64,000 nucleotides of DNA, taken from the NCBI GenBank assembly GCA_965209205.1, contig CBDBQC010000003.1, positions 897,872 to 961,871 on the forward strand, read 5' to 3'. Positions 3,201 to 51,236 of the stretch are shown piece after piece. Each line of letters begins with the position of its first letter. Within the stretch, counting starts at the first letter, position 1. Origin of the DNA: Dehalococcoidia bacterium (GTDB lineage Bacteria; Chloroflexota; Dehalococcoidia; Bin125). Below the pieces are notes generated by a model. It worked only from the letters and a program-made list of their open reading frames with translations. It was not told where the DNA came from and ran no database searches. A program made the position numbers and the translations under genes.

Positions 3201-4094
3201 CTAGCGCACGTTGCGCAGCCGCGGGTCGAGGGCGTCGCGCAGCCAGTCGCCCATCAGGTTGCCGGTCAGCGAGATCGTCAGCAGCGCCAGGCCGGGCAGC
3301 CAGATCGGCCACCAGGCGACGTTCATCGTCTCGCGCCCCTCCGTGATCATCGCGCCCCAGGTCGACGTGCCGGGCGGCACGCCGACGGTCAGGAAGCTCA
3401 GCGCCGCCTCCGCCAGGATCACGAGCGCGACCTCCAGCGTCATGATGATCACGATCGTGTTGACGACGTTCGGGAAGAGGTGCTTGCGGATGATCCAGAT
3501 CGGCCCCGCCCCGGTCGCCCGCGAGGCCGTCACGAAGTCGCGTTGCTTGAGCGAGAGCACGTCCCCCCGCACCAAGCGTCCGTAGGAGGGCCAGGTCCAG
3601 ACCAAGAGGATGATGATCACGTTGCGCAGGCTGGGCCCGACGAGGGCCGCCAGCAGCGCCGCGAAGAGGATCGCCGGCAGCGCCAACTGCACGTCCACGA
3701 GCCGCATCAGCACGTGCCCCCAGAGGCCGCCCCGCCAGCCGGCGATCAGCCCGACGAGCGTGCCGAACAGCGCCGCCCCCGGCACCACGATCGCCACGAC
3801 GATGAGGGAGACCCGCGCCCCGTGCAGCAGCCGGCTGAAGATGTCCCGCCCCAGCTTGTCCGTGCCCAGCGGGTAGTCCCAGCTCCCCCCGTCGAAGACG
3901 GGCGGCTCCAGCCGCACCGCGACGTTCAGGAACTCCGGGTCGTGTGGGGCGATCCAGTCCGCCCCGATCCCGCCGACGAGCAGCAACGTCACGATCACGG
4001 CGGGGAAGGACAGCCCCAGCCAGCGCCGCCAGCGGATAGGACGCCGCCGCTCGAGCTCCACCACCGGCGCCGGGGCCGCCGACTCCTGCGCCAT
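3201..4094 (-). CDS. ABC transporter permease, DppC/OppC-like
   Basis: Multi-TM protein with the EAA-like loop of the binding-protein-dependent family; MAQESAAP start ATG overlaps the dppB stop (ATGA). The ORF-track 671-aa product is a read-through of upstream repeat/other-frame sequence. Confidence 0.8.
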   Translation of the reverse strand: MAQESAAPAPVVELERRRPIRWRRWLGLSFPAVIVTLLLVGGIGADWIAPHDPEFLNVAVRLEPPVFDGGSWDYPLGTDKLGRDIFSRLLHGARVSLIVVAIVVPGAALFGTLVGLIAGWRGGLWGHVLMRLVDVQLALPAILFAALLAALVGPSLRNVIIILLVWTWPSYGRLVRGDVLSLKQRDFVTASRATGAGPIWIIRKHLFPNVVNTIVIIMTLEVALVILAEAALSFLTVGVPPGTSTWGAMITEGRETMNVAWWPIWLPGLALLTISLTGNLMGDWLRDALDPRLRNVR

Positions 4095-5032
4095 CAGGCT
4101 TCTCCCGCTTTGATCCGCGGGTCTATGAAGCGGTAGGAGACGTCGACCAGCAGGTTGGCCACGGTGATCGAGATCGCGAAGACGATGATCGACGCCTGCA
4201 CCATGGGGAAGTCTTCCCGGAGGATGGAGTCGATGATCAGCCGGCCGACGCCGGGCCAGGAGAACACGATCTCCACGATCACCGAGCCGCCGATGAGCCG
4301 GCCGAGCGAGAGGCCCAGCAGCGTCACGACGGGCAGCAACGCGTTGCGCAGCGCGTGCCGCCGGATCACCACCCGCTCGCTCAGCCCCTTGGCCCGCGCC
4401 GTGCGAATGAAGTCGGTATCCAGGACGTCGATCATCCCCGACCGGGTCAGCCGCGTGATCGCGACCAGCTCCAACAGCCCCAGCGACAGCGCCGGCAGGA
4501 TCAAGGACCGGAAGCCGTCCTCCGCGCCGGCGGTCGGGAACCAGCCGAGCTGCACGGAGAAGAAGAAGATCAGCATCAGGCCCAGCCAGAAGCTCGGCGT
4601 GGCCTGCCCGATCACGGCCAGGAAGCGGGCCAGCCAGTCGACGGCCCGGCCCCGCCGCAACGCCGCCACGAGCCCCAACGGCGCCCCCAGCGCGATCGCG
4701 AACACCATGCCGGCCGCCCCCAGCTTGAACGTGTTCAGCGCCCGGTCGCCGATCGCGCCGATCGCCGGTTTGCCCCCGCTCCGAAACGACGTCCCCAAGT
4801 CCCCCTGCGCCAGGTCCCAGAGGAAATTGCCGTACTGGACGAACAGCGGGTCGTTCAGCCCCAGGGTCTCCTTCAGCTGCTCGACGTCGGCCGCCACCCG
4901 CGACTCCATCGGCAGCATGGTCGCCACGGGATCCCCCACGAGGCGCGAGACGAAGAAGACGATCGTCACGACGAGGAAGACGACGAAGAACGCCTGGGTC
5001 AGCCGGATCGCGAAGTAGTGCCAGAACTGCAT
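4094..5032 (-). CDS. ABC transporter permease, DppB/OppB-like
   Basis: 312 aa, N-terminal TM, then ...IDVLDTDFIRTARAKGLSERVVIRRHALRNALLPVVT (canonical DppB/OppB signature). Confidence 0.85.
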   Translation of the reverse strand: MQFWHYFAIRLTQAFFVVFLVVTIVFFVSRLVGDPVATMLPMESRVAADVEQLKETLGLNDPLFVQYGNFLWDLAQGDLGTSFRSGGKPAIGAIGDRALNTFKLGAAGMVFAIALGAPLGLVAALRRGRAVDWLARFLAVIGQATPSFWLGLMLIFFFSVQLGWFPTAGAEDGFRSLILPALSLGLLELVAITRLTRSGMIDVLDTDFIRTARAKGLSERVVIRRHALRNALLPVVTLLGLSLGRLIGGSVIVEIVFSWPGVGRLIIDSILREDFPMVQASIIVFAISITVANLLVDVSYRFIDPRIKAGEA

Positions 5033-5056
5033 CAGATCCCTTGCGGGCCGCGCGCC

Positions 5057-5252
5057 GGAACCTCACCCCCTGGCCCCCTCTCCATTGCAGAGCAATGGAG
5101 AGGGGGAATCGGAAGGGGAGCGGGTTGATCGCACGCCCTTCCGGTCCCCCCTCTCCACCTCCTGGTGGAGAGGGGGTTAGGGGGTGAGGTTCCCCCTCCG
5201 GTCCCCCCTCATCCATCGGTTCAGATGGAGAGGGGGTTAGGGGGTGAGGTTC
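5057..5252. repeat. Inverted-repeat-bounded palindromic repeat element, copy B (~196 bp; one full unit plus a partial tandem unit)
   Basis: Same termini (GGAACCTCACCCCCT ... GGGGGTGAGGTTCC) with three CCCCTC(T/A)TCCA...TGGAGAGGGGG hairpins. Sits between the SBP stop and the dppB start, inside the operon. Confidence 0.75.
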
Positions 5253-5258
5253 CGCGCG

Positions 5259-7667
5259 TTAGATGTGCCGCTGCACGGCGTAGGTGGTGCCCCCCCAGAG
5301 GGTGCCGGTGCGCCCGCCCTTCGGCCAGTTGACGTCGCTGCGGGTCAGCACCGCGTCCGGCGCCTCGACGATGAAGACGTAGTACGCCTGACGCGCGTGC
5401 TCCAGGAACATCTCCGTGATCAGCTCCGCGCGCCGATCGGGATCGAGCTCGGTGGTCTGCGCGAGGTACAGCTCCTGCAGGGCCGGATCCTGGACCCCCG
5501 AGCCGTTGAGCTTCATGAAGTAGGATTCGGGCCCGGCGCAGCAATCCCACATCGATCCGACGTCGCGGACGGGGTTGGCCCAGAACCAGTAGAGGCCCGG
5601 CGGGAGGCCGGGGCCGCCCGTCACGTAGGCGTCGGTCAAGTACTCGCCCAGGAGGGTCGACTCTTCGTGCGCGCGGATGCCGACCGCGGTCAGGTCCTGC
5701 ACCACAGCCAGTACCAGGTCCGCCTCGTACGCGCCGCCCCAGTCGGACGCCCAGTACAGGGGGATGTCGAAGCCGTCCGCATAGCCCGCCTCCGCCAGCA
5801 GCTGCCTCGCCCGCTCGGGGTCGTAGTCGTACTGGACGTCCTGCTTCTGCTCCGGGCTGGGGTAGCCAGGGACGCCGCTGAACGCGAAGAGTGGATACGT
5901 GCCCTGGCCGAGCAGGAGGTTGTCGATCATGGCTTGGCGGTTGATCGCGTGGTTCGCGGCCTGGCGCACGCGGAGGTCCAAGAACGGGTTCGGGCTGCCG
6001 TCTGCCATCGTCTCTGGGAACAGGTTGGGATGGAGGTTCTGGATGGTCCACGGTCCGGCGGGCTGGAACTGCACGCTGAAGTCGGGGTCGTCCACGTACG
6101 GCCTCACGTTATCGGGGCCCAGTTCCGGCACCGTGTCGATCTCACCGGCCTCCAGGCCGGCCAGCCGCGACTGGATCTCGGGCCGCACCACGATCTTCAG
6201 GTGCTTGTTGTGGGCGTAGCGCTGCACCACGGTGGGGTGGTCGACCGGGTTGAAGTGGTCCTCGAAGCGCTCGAAGACGAAGTCCGTGTCGTCTTCGTGG
6301 CTGACGAAACGGTAGGGACCGGTGCCCATCAGCGCCTGGTCCACCGCGGCGTCGCCGCGCCGCTCCGTGTCCGCTTGCGACATGACGGCGATCTCGCCGA
6401 CCCCGGTCAGGTTGATGATGAAGAAGCCCGCATCGGGCGCCGGCAACTCGAACGACCAGGTGCGGTCGTCCACGGCCTCGTTCCGGACCCAGTCCCGGGC
6501 GCTCCGGCCGGGATTCGCGGGGGCCCAGCCGCCGGTGTGATCGCTCGTCGCGCCGCCCTGGTGGTATTCGGCGAGACCGCCCGCGCGGTCGTAGCTGAAC
6601 ACCATGTCGTGGGCGGTGAGGATCGAGCCGTCGTGGAACGGCGCCGGCCGGACTGACGCCCGAATCGACGTGGCGTCAATCCACTCCGGCGCGGCGAGCG
6701 ATGGGACCGACTGGCCATCGAGGGGATCCCAATCCAGGGGCGAGCTGAGGACGGCCCCGTGCGCGTAGTGCTGGCCGAAGCTGCCGGCGCGGTGCTGATC
6801 CAGGCCCCCCTGGTCGGCCGGGACCACCCCGACGATCGAGGCGTCCAGATCGACTTGGTCGAGCGGCCAGGGGACGGTGAACTCGGCGGTCTCGCCGACG
6901 ACCCCGGCGACGGCCGCCGCAGCCGCGCTGGCGGCCTCCCCGGCCGCCTCGGCGGCCTCTTGGGCGGCGGCGACGGCGGCGGCGGCGGTCTCGGCCGCGG
7001 CTTCGGCGGTCTCCTGAGCCGTGGCGGCGGCCGCCCCGGCGGCGGCGGACGCCTCCCCGGCAGCAGCCGCGGCAGCGGCAGCCGCCTCAGCGGCCTCGTC
7101 GATGGCGGCCTGGGCGGCCTCCGCGGTGGCCGTCCCGGCCTCGACCGCGGCGGCCGCGTCGCGGGCGGCCTGGGCGGCGGCCTCGGCGGCCTGAGCGGCG
7201 GCGTCCGCGACGGCCGCGGCAGCGGCGTCACCGGCCGCGGATGCGGCGTCGGCGGCCTGGGCGGCAGCCGCAGCGGCGGCTTCCGCGGCGGCGGCCGCGT
7301 TGGCGGCGTCCTCCGATTCGGCCGCCTCGGCGGCCAGGGCGGCGGCCGCATCGGCGGCGTCGGCGGCCTGGGAAGCCGCGGCGGAGGCCTCGGACGCGGC
7401 GGCAGCCGCCTCAGCGGCGGCGTCCGCGGCGGCCTCGGTTTCGGCGGCGCGCGCCTCGCCGGCGGCGATGGCCGCCGCTGCGGCGTCCTCCGCGGCCGAG
7501 GCGGCCCGTTCGGCGGCCGCGGCCCCGGCGTCGGGCTCGTCGTCGTCGCCACAGCCGACGAGCGCGAGGCCGGCCGCTCCAACGCCAGCCTTCGCGCTGG
7601 CTCCCAACATGGTGCGACGCGAGATCTTTCGCTGTCGCAGGGTGGTCCAATACTTCGGCGTGCTCAT
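5259..7667 (-). CDS. ABC transporter substrate-binding lipoprotein (family 5, peptide/nickel/opine-type) with a ~230-aa Ala-rich acidic linker
   Basis: MSTPKYWTTLRQRKISRRTMLGASAKAGVGAAGLALVGCGDDDE has a Tat-like RR motif and a lipobox (LVGC). A long A/E/D/Q/S/T low-complexity tract follows, then an SBP_5 domain. Lies upstream of dppB and dppC. The 26-aa N-terminal extension in the ORF track is leader sequence. Confidence 0.8.
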   Translation of the reverse strand: MSTPKYWTTLRQRKISRRTMLGASAKAGVGAAGLALVGCGDDDEPDAGAAAAERAASAAEDAAAAAIAAGEARAAETEAAADAAAEAAAAASEASAAASQAADAADAAAALAAEAAESEDAANAAAAAEAAAAAAAQAADAASAAGDAAAAAVADAAAQAAEAAAQAARDAAAAVEAGTATAEAAQAAIDEAAEAAAAAAAAAGEASAAAGAAAATAQETAEAAAETAAAAVAAAQEAAEAAGEAASAAAAAVAGVVGETAEFTVPWPLDQVDLDASIVGVVPADQGGLDQHRAGSFGQHYAHGAVLSSPLDWDPLDGQSVPSLAAPEWIDATSIRASVRPAPFHDGSILTAHDMVFSYDRAGGLAEYHQGGATSDHTGGWAPANPGRSARDWVRNEAVDDRTWSFELPAPDAGFFIINLTGVGEIAVMSQADTERRGDAAVDQALMGTGPYRFVSHEDDTDFVFERFEDHFNPVDHPTVVQRYAHNKHLKIVVRPEIQSRLAGLEAGEIDTVPELGPDNVRPYVDDPDFSVQFQPAGPWTIQNLHPNLFPETMADGSPNPFLDLRVRQAANHAINRQAMIDNLLLGQGTYPLFAFSGVPGYPSPEQKQDVQYDYDPERARQLLAEAGYADGFDIPLYWASDWGGAYEADLVLAVVQDLTAVGIRAHEESTLLGEYLTDAYVTGGPGLPPGLYWFWANPVRDVGSMWDCCAGPESYFMKLNGSGVQDPALQELYLAQTTELDPDRRAELITEMFLEHARQAYYVFIVEAPDAVLTRSDVNWPKGGRTGTLWGGTTYAVQRHI

Positions 7668-7800
7668 GATCGGTTCCTTTCCGGGAACTACCGTTGGCCC
7701 CCCCGGGGGACCGTCGGGCTGGTGAGCATGCGCAGTATGGCACATTTCACTAAGACCCCCCCCCCCCCCCCACCTCCCCCCTTATGTTTCATAGAAAGAT
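7668..7800 (-). promoter_or_regulatory. Conserved 5' leader/promoter module of SBP paralogue 1
   Basis: Near-identical to the leader of the paralogue at ~32175-32290. Contains hairpin GTTCCCGGAAAGGAAC overlapping the RBS, a palindrome GG(C/T)CCCCCCGGGGGACC, and a 16-nt C homopolymer at ~7756-7771. Confidence 0.5.
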
Positions 7801-7937
7801 TTGATGGATACCGGTGGATCTATAGGAGTTGACCGGGGAAACCGCGTCCCGCCACCCTGCGATCTCGCCTATAATCCTCTATACTGCGATGGATACCCGC
7901 GAACCGCGGTTGTGCCGGTGCGCCGCCGGCGCGGCGG

Positions 7938-9260
7938 TTACGACGGGTCGGCCAGGACCATGCCCGCCGCGACGGTGTTCGACGTCGCCTCGTCGATCAG
8001 GATGAAGCTGCCGGTGGCGCGGTTGCGCGCGTAGGCGTCGGGGAAGAGCGGCGTCGTGCAGCGCAGGCGCGCGCGCCCGATGTCGTTCAGCGCCAGCGCC
8101 TCGACGGCCGGCTCGGGCTGGAGCGAGTTCACATCCAGCCGATGCACGATCGACTCCACGACCACGCGCGCCGTCCGCGTCGTGTGCTTGATGCCCAGGC
8201 GCCGGCCCGGCGCGAGCGTCCCCGCCTCCGACATCCAGCAGATCATCGCGTCGAACGTCTGCCGGGCGGCGGGCCGCGTGGCGCTGTGGCAGATCAGGTC
8301 GCCGCGCGAGACGTCGAGGGCGTCGGACAGGGTCACCGTCACCGACAGCGGCGGCCGCGCCGACTCGACGGCGACGCCGCCCACCGCGATGTCCTGGATC
8401 GTGGTCTCCCGCCCCGAGGGCAGCACCGTCACCGGGTCGCCCGGGCGCAGGATGCCCCCGGCCACGACGCCCGCGTAGCCGCGGTAGTCGGAGCCCACGG
8501 GCCGGATGACGTACTGCACCGGCAGGCGGCCGTCGTCGAGGTTGTGATCCCAGGCCACCTCCACCGATTCCAGGTAGTCGAGCAGCGCGGGGCCGTCGTA
8601 CCAGGGCATCGCCGCGGACCGATCGACGACGTTGTCGCCGCGCAGCGCCGAGATCGGGATCGCCCCCAGGTCGATCGTGCGCCCGTGCGTCGCGCGCAGC
8701 TTCGTGGCGAACGCCGCGAAGTCGGCCCGGATGCGGTCGAAGACGGCCTGCTCGTAGCCGGCCAGGTCCATCTTGTTCACGCACAGCACCAGGTGCGGGA
8801 TGCCCAGCAGCGTCGCCAGCGAGGCGTGGCGCCGGGTCTGCTCGACCAGCCCGTGGCGCGCGTCGACCAGGATCAGCGCCAGGTCGGCCGTCGATGCGCC
8901 GGTCACCATGTTGCGCGTGTACTGCACGTGGCCGGGGGTGTCGGCGAGGATGAACTTGCGGCGCGGCGTCTGGAAGTAGCGGTAGGCCACGTCGATCGTG
9001 ATGCCCTGTTCGCGCTCGGCGCGCAGGCCGTCGGTGAGCAGCGCCAGATCGACGTAGGCGTCGCCGCGCGCCTTGCTGGTCCGCTCGATCGCCTGCAGCT
9101 GGTCGTCGAAGGTCTGCTTGGCGTCGTACAGCAGCCGCCCGATCAGCGTGCTCTTGCCGTCGTCGACCGATCCCGCCGTCGAGAAGCGCAGCAGGTCCGA
9201 CGCGCCGTAGCGGCCCGCCGCGGCGTCGGCCGCCGTCGCGCCCGTCATCTTGGGCGTCAT
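7938..9260 (-). CDS. cysN: sulfate adenylyltransferase subunit 1 (GTPase) CysN
   Basis: GSVDDGKSTLIGRLL, DTPGH and NKMD GTPase motifs, with CysN-specific C-terminal domain similarity. Confidence 0.85.
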   Translation of the reverse strand: MTPKMTGATAADAAAGRYGASDLLRFSTAGSVDDGKSTLIGRLLYDAKQTFDDQLQAIERTSKARGDAYVDLALLTDGLRAEREQGITIDVAYRYFQTPRRKFILADTPGHVQYTRNMVTGASTADLALILVDARHGLVEQTRRHASLATLLGIPHLVLCVNKMDLAGYEQAVFDRIRADFAAFATKLRATHGRTIDLGAIPISALRGDNVVDRSAAMPWYDGPALLDYLESVEVAWDHNLDDGRLPVQYVIRPVGSDYRGYAGVVAGGILRPGDPVTVLPSGRETTIQDIAVGGVAVESARPPLSVTVTLSDALDVSRGDLICHSATRPAARQTFDAMICWMSEAGTLAPGRRLGIKHTTRTARVVVESIVHRLDVNSLQPEPAVEALALNDIGRARLRCTTPLFPDAYARNRATGSFILIDEATSNTVAAGMVLADPS

Positions 9261-9281
9261 CCTGGGCCCAGGGCCGGGCGG

Positions 9282-10217
9282 CTAGAAGTAGCCCTCACGC
9301 TTGCGGTCCTCCATGCCCGTCTCCGAGATGCGATCGTCGGCGCGCGTCTCGCCGCGCTCCGTGATGCGCGTCGCCGCGATCTCGCCCACGACCGCCGTCA
9401 GCGTCGTGGCGTCCGACTGCACGGCCGCCGTGCAGGTCATGTCGCCGACCGTGCGGTAGCGCACCCGCGCCCGGAACGGCGCCTCGTTCGGCAGCAGCGT
9501 GACGTGCGGCCCCACCGCGTACAGCATCCCGTCGCGGCGGAAGACCTCGCGCTCGTGCGCGAAGTAGAGCGGCGGCAGCGCCAGCCCCTCCGCGTCGATG
9601 TACTCCCAGATGTCGAGCTCGGTCCAGTTGGACAGCGGGAAGACGCGCATGTGCTCGCCCAGGCGGTGCCGGGCGTTGTACAGCGTCCAGACTTCGGGCC
9701 GCTGATTCTTGGGATCCCACTGGCCGAAGTCGTCGCGCAGCGAGAAGACGCGCTCCTTCGCCCGCGCCTTCTCCTCGTCGCGGCGCGCGCCGCCGAACAC
9801 CGCGTCGAAGCGATGCTCCTGGATCGCGTCCAGCAGGGTCACGGTCTGCAGCCGGTTGCGCGACGCCCGCGGCCCGGTCTCCTCGACCACGCGCCCCGCG
9901 TCGATGCTCGCCTGCACCGACGCCACCACCAGCGCCACGCCCAGCTCCGCCACGCGCCGATCGCGGAAGCGCAGCACCTCGGGGAAGTTGTGGCCGGTGT
10001 CGACGTGCATCGCGGGGAAGGGGATGCGTCCCGGCGCGAAGGCCTTGGCCGCGACCGCCAGCATGACGATGGAATCCTTGCCGCCCGAGAACAGCAGCAC
10101 CGGTCGCTCGAACTCGGCCGCGACCTCGCGCATGATGTGGATCGCTTCGGCCTCCAACTGGCGCAGGTGGGGGATGCGATCGGCGGCGGGGGCCTGGGGT
10201 GGTGCGGCGGTCACCAT
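9282..10217 (-). CDS. cysD: sulfate adenylyltransferase subunit 2 CysD
   Basis: PAPS-reductase-like fold LLFSGGKDS...; overall CysD similarity; directly upstream of cysN. Confidence 0.85.
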   Translation of the reverse strand: MVTAAPPQAPAADRIPHLRQLEAEAIHIMREVAAEFERPVLLFSGGKDSIVMLAVAAKAFAPGRIPFPAMHVDTGHNFPEVLRFRDRRVAELGVALVVASVQASIDAGRVVEETGPRASRNRLQTVTLLDAIQEHRFDAVFGGARRDEEKARAKERVFSLRDDFGQWDPKNQRPEVWTLYNARHRLGEHMRVFPLSNWTELDIWEYIDAEGLALPPLYFAHEREVFRRDGMLYAVGPHVTLLPNEAPFRARVRYRTVGDMTCTAAVQSDATTLTAVVGEIAATRITERGETRADDRISETGMEDRKREGYF

Positions 10218-28087: not shown

Positions 28088-28900
28088 ATGTCCGACTCCC
28101 CCATCCTGGTCGACACGCGTGACGACGGCGTCGCGCTGATCACGCTCAACCGCCCCGACCGGCTCAACGCCATGTCGGCCGACCTGCTCGCGCAACTGTC
28201 CGACGCCCTGACCGCCGCGGCGGCGGACCCCGCCGTCCGCTGCGTCGCGATCACCGGCGCGGGGCGCGCCTTCTCGGCCGGCGGCGACGTGAAGGACATG
28301 GCCGCCGACCGCCGCGCCGTCACCTTCGGCGGCGAGACCGACGAGGAGGCGTCGGGCCTGCTGGCGCGCGCCGCCCAGAGCACGACCGGCGCGATCTACG
28401 CCCTGCCCAAGCCCGTCGTCGCGCTGGTCAACGGCGTCGCCGTGGGCGGCGCGCTGGGCCTGGTGCTGGCCTGCGACGTCCGCCTCGCCTCGCGGCGGGC
28501 GCGGCTGGGGACGGCCTTCCGCAACGTCGGGCTGAGCGGCGACTTCGGCACGACCTACCTGCTGCCGCGACTGGTCGGCTGGGGGCGCGCGCGGGAGCTC
28601 TTCCTCAGCGGCGACCTGCTCGACGCCGACACCGCGCAGGCGTTGGGCCTCGTGACCGCCGTCTACGACGCCGACACCTTCCTCAGCGACGGCCTCGCCT
28701 ACTGCGCCCGGCTGGCCCAGGGCCCCACCCTCGCCTTCGGTCGCATGAAGGCCAACCTCAACTTCGGCGAGGGGCACTCGCTGCCCCAGGCCCTGGCGCA
28801 CGAGGCCCTCAACCAGCGCTTCAGCGCCCTCGACAGCGACCACCGCGATGCCGCCGTCGCGTTCGCCAACAAGCAGGAGCCCGTCTTCCGGGGGCGCTGA
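28088..28900 (+). CDS. enoyl-CoA hydratase/isomerase family protein 2
   Basis: VALITLNRPDRLNAM...FSAGGDVK...VNGVAVGGALGLVLACDVRL...PVFRGR. Confidence 0.8.
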   Translation: MSDSPILVDTRDDGVALITLNRPDRLNAMSADLLAQLSDALTAAAADPAVRCVAITGAGRAFSAGGDVKDMAADRRAVTFGGETDEEASGLLARAAQSTTGAIYALPKPVVALVNGVAVGGALGLVLACDVRLASRRARLGTAFRNVGLSGDFGTTYLLPRLVGWGRARELFLSGDLLDADTAQALGLVTAVYDADTFLSDGLAYCARLAQGPTLAFGRMKANLNFGEGHSLPQALAHEALNQRFSALDSDHRDAAVAFANKQEPVFRGR

Positions 28901-28928
28901 GCGACCCCGCGCAGCAAAGGAGATCGAG

Positions 28929-29816
28929 ATGGAATTCGGCAACTTCCGCGGCTTCGAGGTCGGCCTGCGCGACCCCGGCATCGCCTGGGTGCGGTTCAAC
29001 CAGCCCGAGCGGCTGAACGGCATGACCCACCACCTCAAGCGCGACCTGCGGGAGGCGCTGCTCCAGGCCCAGTTCGACGACGCCGTGCGCGTCGTCGTGA
29101 TCACGGGCTCGGGCCGTGCCTTCTCGGCCGGCGACGACATCACCGGACGCCCGATCTCCTTCGCCGACGACGCCCGGCCGCTCGTCGGCCCCGTCGGCAG
29201 CGGTCACCACAACCCCATGGGCACCTACTACGGCCTGCGCATGATCTCGCAGCCGCTCAACAAGGCCGTGCGCGAGCTGGACAAGATCACCATCGCCGCG
29301 ATCAACGGCGTCGCCGTGCAGACCGGCCTCTCGCTGGCGCTCGCCTGCGACTTCCGCATCGCCGCCGAGAGCGCCCGGCTGACCAGTGGCACGCTGCGTT
29401 TCGGCCTGCTGCCCGACGAGGGCGGCCACAAGCTGATGGTGCAGCACATGGGCGTCACCAAGGCGATGGAGTTCTGCCTGCGCATGCAGTTCGCCGGGGC
29501 GCAGGAGGCGCTCGAACTCGGCATGCTCAACGAGGTCGTCCCCGACGACGAACTCGAAGAGCGCACCATGGCGCTCGCCACCGAGATCGCCAACGGCCCC
29601 CAGGTCGCCATGCGCCTGCTCAAGCGCACGATGTACAACGCCGACGAGATGACCTGGGACCAGGCCTGCGACGACATCGCCACCAAGACCGCGATCGCGG
29701 ACTGGGACCCCGACGCCAAGGAGGGCGGCCTCTCGTTCAAGGAGAAGCGCTCACCCGTCTTCAACCAGCAGCTGGGCGCGGCCCGCGGCGCGCAGCCGTG
29801 GCAGGAAGGCGGCTAG
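28929..29816 (+). CDS. enoyl-CoA hydratase/isomerase family protein 3
   Basis: ATG preceded by AAAGGAG. ...FNQPERLNGM...FSAGDDI...INGVAVQTGLSLALACDFRI... Confidence 0.75.
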   Translation: MEFGNFRGFEVGLRDPGIAWVRFNQPERLNGMTHHLKRDLREALLQAQFDDAVRVVVITGSGRAFSAGDDITGRPISFADDARPLVGPVGSGHHNPMGTYYGLRMISQPLNKAVRELDKITIAAINGVAVQTGLSLALACDFRIAAESARLTSGTLRFGLLPDEGGHKLMVQHMGVTKAMEFCLRMQFAGAQEALELGMLNEVVPDDELEERTMALATEIANGPQVAMRLLKRTMYNADEMTWDQACDDIATKTAIADWDPDAKEGGLSFKEKRSPVFNQQLGAARGAQPWQEGG

Positions 29817-29930: not shown

Positions 29931-32174
29931 CTACGTCGTCAGGACGTTGATCTGGTAGGCCTTGTGCATGTCGGCGATCTGCGCGGCGCCGAGCGGCCAG
30001 TCGATATTGGCCGCCGTCGCGTGGTACTGGAAGCGCTCCGTCAGGTAGATGAAGCCCGCCCGCTGGTAGTGCGCGACGTAGAGGTCCTCGATCGCCGCGG
30101 CGCGGTCGTCGGCGTTGACGGCCGACTTCGTGCGCGCGCGCATGTCCGCCAGGTCGTCGTGCGGCGCCAGCGAGTAGGTGCCGCCCGGCGTCGGCGCGAT
30201 GTGCGCGGCGATCATGATCTCCGGCTCGAAGCAGGCGCAGTTCTGCATGAAGAAGAGCCCGGCCCCCTCCGTTTCTGAAGCGGCGGCGTTGCGAGCCGTG
30301 GCGAAGAACTCGCCGGTCGGGTACGACTGCATTTCGAGCTCGACGCCGACGGCCGCCAGATCCTGCTGCAGGACCAGCGCCACCGCGGGGTCGGTCGGGA
30401 TGAAGTCCACCGAGAAGTGGAACGGCGTCGTGAACCCGTCCGGGTAGCCGGCCTCGGCGAGCAGGGCCCGGGCAAGGTCCGGGTCGTACGCGTACGGCCC
30501 GATCGCCTCCAGCGCTTCCCGCGGGTAGAACGCGGCCCCGGCCCAGGCGCCGTACGACACGCCCTCCTGCCCGGTCATCAGGTTGTCGATGATCGCCTGC
30601 TTGTTGATCGCGTGGTTCAGGGCCTTGCGCACCCGCTCGTCCCGGAAGGGATTCGGGATGCCGTTGACCTCCTCGGTCAACAGGTTCGGGAGCAGGTACT
30701 GGTTCGGGTTGCCGGCCCAGCCCAAACCGACGTTGAAGTCCGGGTCGTCCCGGATCGGTTCCACGACGTCCGGGGTCAGGGCGTACGCGACATCGATCTC
30801 GCCCGCCTCCATCCCGGCGATGCGGGAGAGCGGCTCCGGCCGCACGAGGTGGACGTGCCGCCGGGTGGACGTCGCCCCGAGCGGCGCCGGCGTGGGCGAC
30901 CACGGCAGGTGGTAGTCCTCGTTGCGCTCGAAGACGAAGTCGGTGTCTTCGGTGTGGCTGACGAAGCGCATGTTCCCCGTGCCCATGGATGAGGCGTCGA
31001 CGGCCGCGTCTCCCCGCTCCTCGGTGTCCCGCTTCGACATCGTGTAGATGTTGCCCAGGTAGGCGCCCGAGATCGTCGCGTCGGGTTCGTGGGTATTGAT
31101 CGTCCAGTGCAGCTTGTCGGTCTGGCCATAGCCCGCCCAGTGGTGGGCGCCCTGCTGCGTGCGCGCGCTGGCCCAGCCGCCGGGGTGGTCGGACGTCTCG
31201 CCGCCCTGGTGGTACTCGGCGATGTTCCCCACCCGCTCGTACGTGAAGATCATGTCTTCCGCCGTCAACTGCTGGCCGTTGTGGAAGAACACGTTGTCCT
31301 TGACGGTCAGGGCCCAGGTCGTGTCATCGGGGAGTTCCCACTGGACCAGGATCCCCGTGGGATTCCCGGTGTCCGGATCGAAATCCACGGGCCGGTCGAA
31401 CACGCTGTGGGAGTTCTGGTAGTTGACCTGGCTGCCGGAACGATGCGGATCGAGACCGCCGTTGTCGGCCGCCAGGGCGAGCCGCAGGGTGGCCTCCGTG
31501 TCGATCGTCCCGGCGGCGGCGGACGGCGCGTCCTCCTCCGCGGCCATGGTGGCGGCGTCGGCGGCCTCGCGGGCCGCGTCGGCGGCCTCTTCGGCCGCCG
31601 AGACGGCGGCCGCGGCGGTCTCGGCCGCGGCAGCGGACGCCTCCCCCGCGGCGGCAGCGGCGGCAGCCGCGGCATCGGCCGCGGCCTGGGCGGCGGCGGC
31701 AGCGGCGGCGGTGTCCTCGGCGCCCGCCTCGCGGGCGGCGGCGGCGGCGGCCTCGGCGGCATCGGCGGCCGCCTGCGCGACGGCGGCGGCGCCCGCGTCG
31801 CCCGCGGCCCGGGCGGCCTCGGCAGCATCGGCAGCCGCATCGGCGGCCGCCTGGGCGGCTGCGGCCGCCTGTTCGGCGTCATCCGACGCCGCGGCTTCGG
31901 CCGCCAGGGCGGAGGCCGCCTCGGCGGCTTCGGCGGCGCGGCCCGCAGCCTCGGCGGCGTCGCTCGCGGCGGATGCCGCGGCAGCGGCGTCGCCCGCCGC
32001 CGCGTCGATCGCCGACGTATCGACGGCGGCCGGCGCGGCGTCATCGTCGTCGTCGCCGCAGCCGACGAGCGCGAGCCCAGCCGCTCCAACGCCGGCTTTG
32101 GCGCTGGCTCCCAACATGGTGCGACGCGAGATCTTTCGCTGTCGCAGGGTGTTCCAATACTTCGGCGTACTCAT
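29931..32174 (-). CDS. orphan paralogue of the family-5 ABC substrate-binding lipoprotein, with a ~205-aa Ala-rich acidic linker
   Basis: First ~60 codons and the upstream leader are nearly identical at DNA level to the 5259-7667 gene. Same RR/lipobox N-terminus and Ala/Glu/Asp tract; the SBP_5 domain is roughly 40-50% identical. No adjacent permeases; convergent with the ECH genes. Confidence 0.8.
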   Translation of the reverse strand: MSTPKYWNTLRQRKISRRTMLGASAKAGVGAAGLALVGCGDDDDDAAPAAVDTSAIDAAAGDAAAAASAASDAAEAAGRAAEAAEAASALAAEAAASDDAEQAAAAAQAAADAAADAAEAARAAGDAGAAAVAQAAADAAEAAAAAAREAGAEDTAAAAAAAQAAADAAAAAAAAAGEASAAAAETAAAAVSAAEEAADAAREAADAATMAAEEDAPSAAAGTIDTEATLRLALAADNGGLDPHRSGSQVNYQNSHSVFDRPVDFDPDTGNPTGILVQWELPDDTTWALTVKDNVFFHNGQQLTAEDMIFTYERVGNIAEYHQGGETSDHPGGWASARTQQGAHHWAGYGQTDKLHWTINTHEPDATISGAYLGNIYTMSKRDTEERGDAAVDASSMGTGNMRFVSHTEDTDFVFERNEDYHLPWSPTPAPLGATSTRRHVHLVRPEPLSRIAGMEAGEIDVAYALTPDVVEPIRDDPDFNVGLGWAGNPNQYLLPNLLTEEVNGIPNPFRDERVRKALNHAINKQAIIDNLMTGQEGVSYGAWAGAAFYPREALEAIGPYAYDPDLARALLAEAGYPDGFTTPFHFSVDFIPTDPAVALVLQQDLAAVGVELEMQSYPTGEFFATARNAAASETEGAGLFFMQNCACFEPEIMIAAHIAPTPGGTYSLAPHDDLADMRARTKSAVNADDRAAAIEDLYVAHYQRAGFIYLTERFQYHATAANIDWPLGAAQIADMHKAYQINVLTT

Positions 32175-32345
32175 GATCGGTTCCTTTCCGGGAACTACCG
32201 TTGGTCCCCCCGGGGGACCGTCGGGCTGGTGAGCACGCGCAGTATGGCACATCCAATAGAGACTCCCCCCCCCACCCCCCCTATGTCAAGTAAGAAGGAA
32301 ATTATGGGGTTATCCACGGTATTTGCAAAGTTATCCACAGGATTT
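32175..32345 (-). promoter_or_regulatory. Conserved 5' leader/promoter module of SBP paralogue 2, with a C9-A-C7 tract and two consensus DnaA boxes
   Basis: Leader hairpins identical to copy 1 (GTTCCCGGAAAGGAAC; GGTCCCCCCGGGGGACC). An AT-rich patch carries TTATCCACG (~32309) and TTATCCACA (~32331) as direct repeats 13 nt apart. Confidence 0.5.
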
Positions 32346-32426
32346 TTCGGATTCGGGCGCCGTGGGACGCCCCCTGTGTCACTCGTGGGGTTCCGGCGTG
32401 CGATCGCGCGCCGGAATCGCTCCCCC

Positions 32427-32460
32427 GAACCTCCTCTCCATCGTGCAGATGGAGAGGAGG
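32427..32460. repeat. degenerate solo hairpin copy of the palindromic repeat family
   Basis: GAACCTCCTCTCCATCGTGCAGATGGAGAGGAGG. Confidence 0.55.
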
Positions 32461-32717
32461 CCAAAAGGTGGAGGTCGGCCGGCGCGCCACGATCCGGTGA
32501 TCTACCCGACCGCCAGCCTGACTTGGGCGATGGCCGGCGTAGCCCACGCATGGGGGCGGTTGGCACCGTTCGCGGCGCGCGGAGATCCGCTCCGACCGCC
32601 CCCACCATCCCTGCTCGCGTGGGCCGTGCTCGCCGACGCCGGATAGGGAGATCACCCCACGTGGCATCCCCGCGCGCCACCCTCTACACTGGCCAATGGA
32701 CAGAAAGGAACGGGGCC

Positions 32718-50963: not shown

Positions 50964-51236
50964 CGCATCTCCTCCCGCTCGTGCGATCCGGGATCTGGCG
51001 GACCGCCACGCTGCGTATGCTGCCGCCCCGCCATGCTACGCGCATCACCGGCGTCGTCGCCTCCCGCCCCGCCTCCGCCCGCGTCCGGGATGGGCGCTGC
51101 CCGTCACATCGCCGCTGGCGGCAGCCGCGCCGTCTGCCCTACCATCGCCCTGCCCCCGATCACGCGCGCCCGCGGGGCGCAGGCCCGGGAGGCACGACAC
51201 CGGCCACGACCGGCCGGACACAACGAAAGGGACCCC

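Follow-up and report, generated by a model that had tools for sequence, protein, structure and literature searches.

A probable lineage-wide 5′ cassette with a structured leader in SBP_bac_5 lipoprotein genes of Dehalococcoidia

We analysed a 64,000-nt stretch of a Dehalococcoidia contig (CBDBQC010000003.1, positions 897,872 to 961,871; hereafter the window) whose minus strand encodes two paralogous solute-binding proteins (SBPs) with an SBP_bac_5 domain, W1 at 5259-7667 and W2 at 29931-32174. On balance it is probable that both genes carry a lineage-wide 5′ lipoprotein cassette of Dehalococcoidia SBP_bac_5 genes, the leader of which is a generic structured 5′ untranslated region (UTR) that senses no ligand. 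The cassette runs in order from a promoter through a 5′ UTR of about 60 nt with a GC-rich hairpin (P2), a long Shine-Dalgarno (SD) sequence and a signal peptide ending in an Asp run to an Ala-rich linker. Its -10 element is (C/G/T)ATA(C/A)T, often with a run of G or C in or beside the spacer. P2 lies about 10 nt from the predicted 5′ end, at the very tip of which a stem of 3-5 bp (P1) would sit, and the SD, GAAAGGA, is in many copies partly folded into a weak hairpin (P3). Coordinates are collected in Table 1.

The initial annotation had reported near-identical DNA around both start codons in front of mature SBP domains of about 40-50% identity, and had read this pattern as gene conversion or a modular 5′ cassette. 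Our comparison bears out the description and supports the reading. An ungapped block, (-) 7745-7536 in W1 and 32252-32043 in W2, is identical at 199 of 210 bases, and identity falls abruptly at both of its edges. Base by base, as the initial annotation had proposed to align it, the leader (-78 to -1) agrees at 76 of 78 positions. Codons 1-44, which encode the signal peptide, are 93% identical at the nucleotide level and 82% identical at third positions; the linker has 67% amino-acid identity, and the mature domain has 41% amino-acid identity with 51% identity at third positions. Where the two proteins share a residue, they also share the codon in 83% of cases within the signal peptide versus 61-62% elsewhere. 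The closest agreement is found between -78 and about +72, where 4 of 150 nt differ; between +73 and +132 it loosens to 7 of 60 nt. A sharp discontinuity of this kind between paralogues, synonymous sites included, is characteristic of gene conversion, and the two copies have been homogenised recently, most tightly between -78 and about +72. The leader is also more alike in W1 and W2 than third codon positions are (Fisher p = 0.011), which is explicable by the position of the last conversion tract, so we do not take it as proof of selection on the leader. Exact-protein look-ups with both start variants of the SBPs and with CysN found none on record.

Within the signal peptide the near-invariant part is ISRRTMLGASAKAGVGAAGLALVGCGDDD, which comprises a twin-arginine-like motif and a lipobox; in W1 these are SRRTML and LVGC (Cys39 at 7553-7551), followed by the Asp run. 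Among the twin-arginine translocation (TAT) and lipoprotein hidden Markov models applied to the signal peptide, no model came near its cut-off, and the signal type is therefore read from motifs alone.

The shared block extends well beyond these two genes, and the further copies that the initial annotation had suggested looking for are numerous: the same signal peptide heads many Dehalococcoidia SBP genes. A signal-peptide profile (A2) searched against the GTDB representative genomes gave at least 136 confirmed loci, all of them in Dehalococcoidia/Chloroflexota metagenome-assembled genomes (MAGs), several of which have sponge-metagenome bin names. We kept 80 loci (given L numbers below) for further analysis. 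Three single MAGs of 2.65-2.8 Mb supply at least 14, 11 and 7 of the SBP loci kept, which shows that the cassette is multi-copy within genomes, and SBP_bac_5 was found in 10 of 10 signal-peptide loci tested. Promoter, leader and signal peptide thus recur family-wide before divergent mature regions, as in a conserved 5′ lipoprotein cassette, the lipoprotein signal being called from its motifs.

BLAST comparison of the window genes with these loci indicates that segments of the cassette have recombined among paralogues. W1 has whole-gene relatives in L019 (89% identity over -102 to +1565) and L022 (86%). Its linker alone (+1 to +754) is 88-90% identical to those of L017, L033, L008, L037 and L046, which come from at least three genomes; there the similarity ends where the linker ends, and the mature domains differ. 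The signal peptide and linker of W2 match L006 at 91% identity, but only from -14 on, as the leader of L006 is different, and L086 has a W1-type coding start behind another leader type with a poly-C run. In this BLAST-based comparison, neighbouring segments are incongruent in L006 relative to W2, in L086 and L019 relative to W1, and in the linker-only matches. Leader types recur across genomes, and several types coexist within one genome. Such mosaic combinations of leader, signal peptide, linker and mature domain suggest gene conversion of the 5′ cassette, and the history of these genes appears to be one of recombinational homogenisation of the 5′ cassette rather than slow divergence of an old duplication.

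A literature search for prior descriptions (sponge Chloroflexi SBP signal peptides, homopolymer phase variation in sponge symbionts, SBP gene conversion and mobile promoters) found no matching report. The cassette combines known kinds of element, namely concerted lipoprotein 5′ cassettes and structured 5′ UTRs. A similar arrangement occurs in the erp genes of Borrelia burgdorferi, paralogous lipoprotein genes whose near-identical upstream region and leader peptide are kept alike by recombination. The Borrelia copies are located on cp32 prophage plasmids and their shared box is a protein-bound operator, whereas the cassette copies are chromosomal and carry a hairpin of varying sequence. The Borrelia region is termed the upstream homology box (UHB; PMC10016077).

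In marine and sponge-associated bacteria SBPs rank with the most abundant proteins, and they define what uncultivated cells take up. With a dozen or more SBP genes per 2.7-2.8-Mb genome behind a common, recombining front end, their expression, export and tethering would be standardised, and new binding domains could be plugged into a proven cassette.

The structural evidence for the leader centres on P2. In both window copies its core, GGTCCCC-CGG-GGGG(G/A)CC, is closed by outer CCG/CGG pairs, and the sole difference between W1 and W2 inside P2 replaces a U-A pair by U-G, so that the pair is kept. The initial annotation had placed this second palindrome 10 nt upstream of a hairpin at the ribosome-binding site (RBS); the palindrome is indeed present in both copies, but the spacing is 7 nt from the inner stem. 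In 84% of 76 distinct leaders, a set that includes distant relatives of unrelated sequence, the region from -62 to -17 exceeds its dinucleotide shuffles in stability, with a mean z over the set of -1.24 (Wilcoxon p = 3e-11); for other window genes (crude calls) mean z is about 0. We also aligned 12 sister leaders (group B) with MAFFT without reference to structure and then imposed the 10 pairs of P2 and 5 pairs of P3 (alignment A4). Under the imposed structure 80.6% of cells are paired, a share that falls to 39-53% on sliding the 3′ partners by 1-3 columns, and 7 of the 15 pairs are altered on both sides. The covariation score is 0.272 versus 0.07-0.15 in controls, and 0 of 500 column shuffles reached 0.272. 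The P2 stems of group B include CCCCATCC/GGATGGGG, CCCGTCC/GGGCGGG and GCCCCCCA/TGGGGGGT, and the stem in the window's own leader group is G(G/A)TCCC/GGGAC (GGTCCCC/GGGGACC in the window itself). The hairpins are thus more than a coincidence of two copies, since sister leaders keep them in place with other sequences. We conclude from these comparisons that the SBP leaders conserve, as a structural feature, a stable hairpin placed about 10-25 nt before the SD, and that across the family it is the fold of P2 that is kept and not its sequence. When applied to all 31 leaders (A3), RNAalifold recovered three pairs only and no common complex fold, a low yield that is attributed to MAFFT keeping the two leader groups out of structural register.

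P3 is less consistently maintained. The RBS hairpin described in the initial annotation sits at the place given for it in both copies, but it covers only 3 of about 8 SD bases, as its 5 bp pair the GGA of the 8-nt SD GGAAAGGA. The string GTTCC-CGGAAA-GGAAC has two matches only in the window at up to 3 mismatches, where 0.25 would be expected by chance. In other leaders P3 varies with pairing kept (GTTCC/GGAAC, ATCC/GGAT, AATCC/GGATT, CATCC/GGATG, CATCC/GGGTG and CTC/GAG), and it is reduced to CC/GG in the L009 type (GGACC..GGGAAC), the L015 type (GTACC..GGACT) and L040, although the cassette is otherwise alike. Its predicted stability of -4.4 kcal/mol compares with about -10 to -13 kcal/mol for the SD:anti-SD duplex, given an assumed 16S end. 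Predicted SD pairing is 0.50 versus 0.42 in upstream-shuffled controls and exceeds the control in 17 of 23 leader types (p = 0.048), a weak excess, and 8-13% of upstream shuffles occlude the SD as much as the W1 and W2 leaders do. We see P3 as a likely mild and non-essential damping of initiation, not a switch. A metagenome scan for the window-type RBS hairpin gave 7 matches in unrelated organisms and genes, which we regard as chance, SD-based matches. The exact motif GTTCCNGGAAAGGAAC-N5-ATGAG was observed upstream of unrelated genes in unrelated metagenome contigs of lower GC content (L088-L094), so short SD-containing palindromes can arise independently.

We propose that the cassette works as follows. 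Transcription would start about 7 nt after the (C/G/T)ATA(C/A)T box (around 7727 in W1 and 32234 in W2), and the small 5′-proximal stem together with P2 would protect the mRNA at its 5′ end and shield the SD region against sequence further upstream, with P2 keeping the SD in a defined, otherwise unpaired context. The long SD would recruit the 30S subunit, which would melt P3 through the stronger SD:anti-SD pairing; P3 would merely trim translation initiation, and no ligand would be sensed. The signal peptide would direct the protein to lipidation at Cys39, and the Ala-rich linker would hold the binding domain off the membrane.

Stabilising hairpins in 5′ UTRs are known from the E. coli ompA leader and the B. 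subtilis aprE and ermC leaders. As in the cassette, a stable stem-loop lies near the 5′ end and upstream of a strong SD in mRNAs of abundant envelope or binding proteins; these leaders have no sequence relationship to the cassette, whose putative function we read from its anatomy only, with P2 placed relative to a predicted 5′ end. At the 3′ end, malE and hisJ are classic SBP messages stabilised by repetitive extragenic palindromic (REP) elements, and W1 resembles them in having three REP-like palindromes after its stop codon, at 5080-5255, ahead of the permease gene. In a sponge metaproteome, no bacterial protein function was detected more often than SBPs of the K02035 type (peptide/nickel transport; PMC6081418). 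By analogy, the REP-like palindromes and the abundance of K02035-type SBPs would fit a stabilised, highly expressed SBP message.

Several observations weigh against this account of the leader. Taken singly, the 72-nt window leaders show no gain in folding energy over dinucleotide shuffles (z = +0.09 and -0.04), and P2 alone has z = -0.73, so the window hairpins are thermodynamically unexceptional and the support for structure must be comparative. In the leader group to which the window copies belong, P2 keeps its sequence and is 87% paired, with zero compensatory changes; the covariation of P2 and P3 stems from the sister group and from the comparison between groups. A covariance model built from the sister group (R1) retrieves its own group at E 1e-10 to 1e-17, but the window's group only at E 0.03-0.5, and it misses the window copies. 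Thus no single family-wide model was obtained, and the covariance check put forward in the initial annotation finds covariation in the sister group but none in the window's own. The p-values overstate independence, because the leaders are related by descent. Counts of G-U versus A-C (10 versus 6) do not tell whether the palindrome works at the RNA or the DNA level. In this clade the SD is paired slightly more than expected by chance, in distant relatives less, and there may be some selected translational damping or control. Finally, the transcription start site (TSS), the UTR length and the effects on stability and translation are all inferred. Two R1 matches elsewhere in the window, at 51187 and 10215, are weak and look like noise.

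The most unusual feature of these genes is found in the promoter, a little outside the part on which the initial annotation had focused. In relatives, CATACT, CATAAT or GATACT is found at -67 to -79 from the ATG. Run-free relatives have TTGACA, a spacer of 17-18 nt and then CATACT; in run-bearing loci the spacer is 20-26 nt, and in W2 it is 37 nt from TTGACA to CATACT. The two SBP promoter tracts are the only G/C runs of at least 8 nt in the window, and of the 24 runs of at least 9 nt in 248 kb of related loci, 20 fall at -135 to -60 from an SBP ATG. Homopolymers of 8 nt or more are thus enriched at these promoters, as in slipped-strand promoters, and the position of the tract is conserved in relatives. 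Runs of 9-29 nt at about -135 to -73 from the ATG were found in L007, L009-L021, L025, L033, L035-L037, L041, L046 and L086. Some paralogues have poly-G and others poly-C, which makes the run a property of the DNA. Run lengths, compared between paralogues and between genomes, differ even among close relatives: C12 versus C19 in the 95%-identical L018 and L015, G12, G10, G13 and G12 in L009-L012, and a 26-nt G-rich tract with G16 in W1 versus G12 in its orthologue L019, differences to which long-read homopolymer error may contribute. In L022 and L028 the tract is degenerate yet of similar length. The flanks of the run are unique (for example CTTTCTATGAAACATAA...TCTTAGTGAAATGTGCC), and the G/C runs are candidate hypermutable, phase-variable promoters.

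It is tentatively possible that the whole SBP_bac_5 repertoire consists of contingency loci, in which spacer runs shifting the spacing from 17 to more than 20 nt would switch or grade expression stochastically while modules recombine between paralogues. By analogy this would be a Vlp-like system for nutrient transporters in an uncultivated and partly sponge-associated lineage, a comparison that we offer just as tentatively. The variable-lipoprotein (vlp) genes of Mycoplasma hyorhinis are reported to have a conserved promoter, 5′ UTR and prolipoprotein signal before divergent mature regions, as well as a homopolymer run in the promoter spacer, both as in the cassette. The mature parts of the vlp products are repetitive antigens, whereas those of the cassette genes are solute-binding domains of ABC transporters. 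Unlike in vlp, the cassette runs consist of G or C, may lie on either strand and reach 29 nt, and the genes are dispersed rather than clustered; ON/OFF switching is a candidate property read from sequence, and the host is a Dehalococcoidia MAG lineage that is partly sponge-derived. Phase-variable promoters with homopolymer spacers are also described for Neisseria porA and opc and for Bordetella fim (PMC1891110, PMC5084427). There too a run of G or C lies between -35 and -10 and its length sets the spacer length, whereas the window-type promoter is of the extended -10 kind and its run falls at or across the -35 position, not in a 17-nt spacer. Promoter G/C runs would be a plausible route to population-level heterogeneity in substrate use.

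Other features were observed upstream of these promoters. A second G run, of 7-20 nt, precedes the promoter run by about 70-110 nt (at about -210 to -155) in L009-L012, L014, L022, L025, L028, L030 and L046. An AT-rich block, GTGGATAACCCCATAATTTCCTTC, is conserved upstream of TTGACA at 32300-32345 (-) in the window and at about -150 to -115 in L009-L012, L025 and L028. GTGGATAAC, which is the reverse complement of the DnaA-box-like TTATCCAC, occurs twice in the window copy. Also predicted there, at 32329-32301 (-), is a second sigma-70-like site, TTTGCA-N17-CATAAT, and therefore a longer 5′ UTR including the G tract may exist.

Returning to the leader, it is unlikely, though worth considering, that it serves as a shared cis site for a trans-acting factor, either a CsrA-like protein or a small RNA, that covers the SD and P3 with P2 as a scaffold. 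One leader on many paralogues is a regulon-like layout, and SD pairing is raised slightly in this clade only. CsrA-like proteins recognise GGA in hairpin loops, and the window leader has two GGA triplets, one in the loop of P3 and one in the SD. The motif CC-R-GAA-R-GGA is moreover nearly invariant among leaders; it is, however, mostly the complement of the 16S 3′ end, and that complementarity accounts for its near-invariance. Loops and junctions differ between leader types within one genome, and P3 is absent from several leader types.

We consider it improbable that the palindromes act in DNA, as transcription-factor operators or recombination sites, rather than in RNA. As DNA, GGTCCCCCGGGGGGACC is an almost perfect palindrome, the window's leader group conserves the sequence itself, and the G-U versus A-C counts are indecisive. 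However, the palindromes lie downstream of the -10 box and beside the SD, and their stems vary in length and loop size; leader types found together in one genome have stems of different sequence that nevertheless stay complementary, and one DNA-binding protein would not be expected to recognise them all. A DNA operator is unlikely for these reasons of position and of sequence divergence within one genome.

The initial annotation had proposed that the leader is a cis-regulatory RNA in which the RBS stays occluded until a ligand or protein opens it. This proposal, extended to temperature so as to include RNA thermometers as well as riboswitch-like elements, now appears very improbable. P3 is predicted to form and its 3′ arm does hold part of the SD, as in fourU and ROSE thermometers and riboswitch expression platforms, and P3-type hairpins recur with compensatory changes. 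But the helix is far weaker than the SD:anti-SD duplex, it is lost in sister leader types, and about 8-13% of shuffled upstream sequences occlude the SD to the same degree. The leader consists of two or three plain stem-loops, with no multi-helix core, invariant unpaired bases or alternative pairing; since the loops (ACAAN, ATGGG and CGG) and the P2-P3 junction vary between leader types, no binding pocket is apparent. Rfam 15 gave no match in the whole window at gathering score, and at E up to 10 the region 7560-7900 gave noise only (miRNA and lncRNA models scored 11-18 bits where their cut-offs are 55-87, and Chloroflexi-1 scored 12.6 bits with a cut-off of 80), in agreement with the remark in the initial annotation that no known riboswitch class was recognised. 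Terminator-like sites were absent from 7600-7960 and 32100-32700, and P2 is followed by AACGGTAG, so that no attenuator is seen. The same leader also heads SBPs that are only 41% identical and probably bind different ligands. Unlike thermometers and riboswitches, the cassette comes without an aptamer or a heat-shock or virulence context, and its genes encode nutrient SBPs. The leader adds a small lineage-specific 5′-UTR motif, for which the label riboswitch is unwarranted from present evidence.

In all of the above the start codons were treated as 7667 and 32174. The identity block opens exactly at an in-frame ATG (7745 and 32252) 26 codons further 5′, an ATG that falls on the 5′ edge of the extended -10 element, which reads ATGTGCCATACT here and TATAATG in relatives. 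GGAAAGGA lies at a suitable distance 5′ of ATG 7667 and 32174: a 7-nt SD precedes ATG 7667 by 7 nt (the spacer CCGATC plus the last A). It is a 7-nt match to an assumed canonical 16S 3′ end; among crudely called window genes one has a longer match and two have an equal one. Because the upstream peptide is unconserved, the upstream ATG falls in the -10 element and the SD is well placed, we hardly credit a reading in which the leader is coding and the block encodes a 26-residue N-terminal extension: the frame is open from 7745 and 32252, and in 34 of 43 related leaders the 27 upstream codons are free of in-frame stops, but at 71% GC open frames are expected, the other 9 leaders do have in-frame stops, many leaders lack an upstream start codon, upstream peptides differ between leader types, and gene callers on related contigs mostly begin at the MS... 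methionine.

The leader hairpin and signal peptide together should be a useful annotation marker of true start codons. The SBP family is systematically mis-called in public gene sets, many database open reading frames (ORFs) being frameshifted fragments or starting too far upstream. All that a search with the N-terminal 70 residues retrieved were ORFs that carry this signal peptide and are short or frameshifted. The database proteins concerned (P0001-P0015) are mostly fragments of 40-114 aa in which the frame is lost inside the GC-rich linker. Such cases include L004 (4001-4230). The two contigs traced, those of P0002 and P0003, bear the names 3x and 4x, and the L030 frame is interrupted by 5 stops.

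Table 1. Positions of cassette features and protein regions in the window.
Feature	Gene	Position	Strand	Details
G-rich tract, GGGGGGAGGT+G16	W1	7756..7781	-	upstream of -10 box; 5′ edge of shared module
Extended -10, TGCCATACT	W1	7734..7742	-	predicted TSS ~7727 (inferred)
P2	W1	7691..7717	-	CCG-ac-GGTCCCC-cgg-GGGGGCC-aa-CGG; -16.9 kcal/mol
P3	W1	7673..7688	-	GTTCC-CGGAAA-GGAAC; -4.4 kcal/mol; SD GGAAAGGA at 7682-7675
Signal peptide and start codon	W1	7536..7667	-	start codon 7667-7665; 44 codons; near-identity ends at 7536
Linker	W1	6858..7535	-	Ala/Glu/Asp-rich low-complexity, ~225 residues
Mature SBP_bac_5 domain	W1	5259..6857	-	41% amino-acid identity to W2
TTGACA (32289-32284), ta, G7-T-G9 (32281-32265)	W2	32265..32289	-	upstream of the SBP gene
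Extended -10, TGCCATACT	W2	32241..32249	-	from sequence
P2	W2	32198..32224	-	-17.5 kcal/mol
P3	W2	32180..32195	-	RBS hairpin; SD at 32189-32182
Signal peptide and start codon	W2	32043..32174	-	sequence comparison with W1
Linker and mature SBP_bac_5 domain	W2	29931..32042	-	linker ~31500-32042

The linker between lipobox and binding domain, at about 180-225 residues, is far longer than usual lipoprotein tethers, and linker types are swapped between paralogues independently of the mature domain.

The REP-like element, of the form ..CCTCACCCCCTAACCCCCTCTCCAT-N7-9-ATGGAGAGGGGG.., is dispersed: in the window it occurs at 5080-5255, 2000-2140 and 32418-32472, including one copy upstream of the W2 promoter and two in the gap at 1998-2163, and it is also found upstream of L009, L010, L016-L019, L025, L028, L037 and L086. 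Its core CTCCAT-N-ATGGAG occurs 4 times in the window, where 0.03 would be expected. A 671-aa ORF with a BPD_transp_1 permease domain at 3201-5216 (-) has an over-extended 5′ end: it crosses the three REP-like palindromes, so the real permease start lies downstream of about 5030.

W2 appears to be monocistronic, since the gene at 28848-29816 (+), for an enoyl-CoA hydratase, is convergent with it. W1 lies directly downstream of cysD/cysN-like genes at 7938-10217 (-), which encode PAPS_reduct and GTP_EFTU domains, and the related locus L004 lies amid genes for sulfite reductase, PAPS reductase, Rrf2 and cysteine synthase. The W1 subtype of SBP may be linked to the uptake of sulfur compounds.

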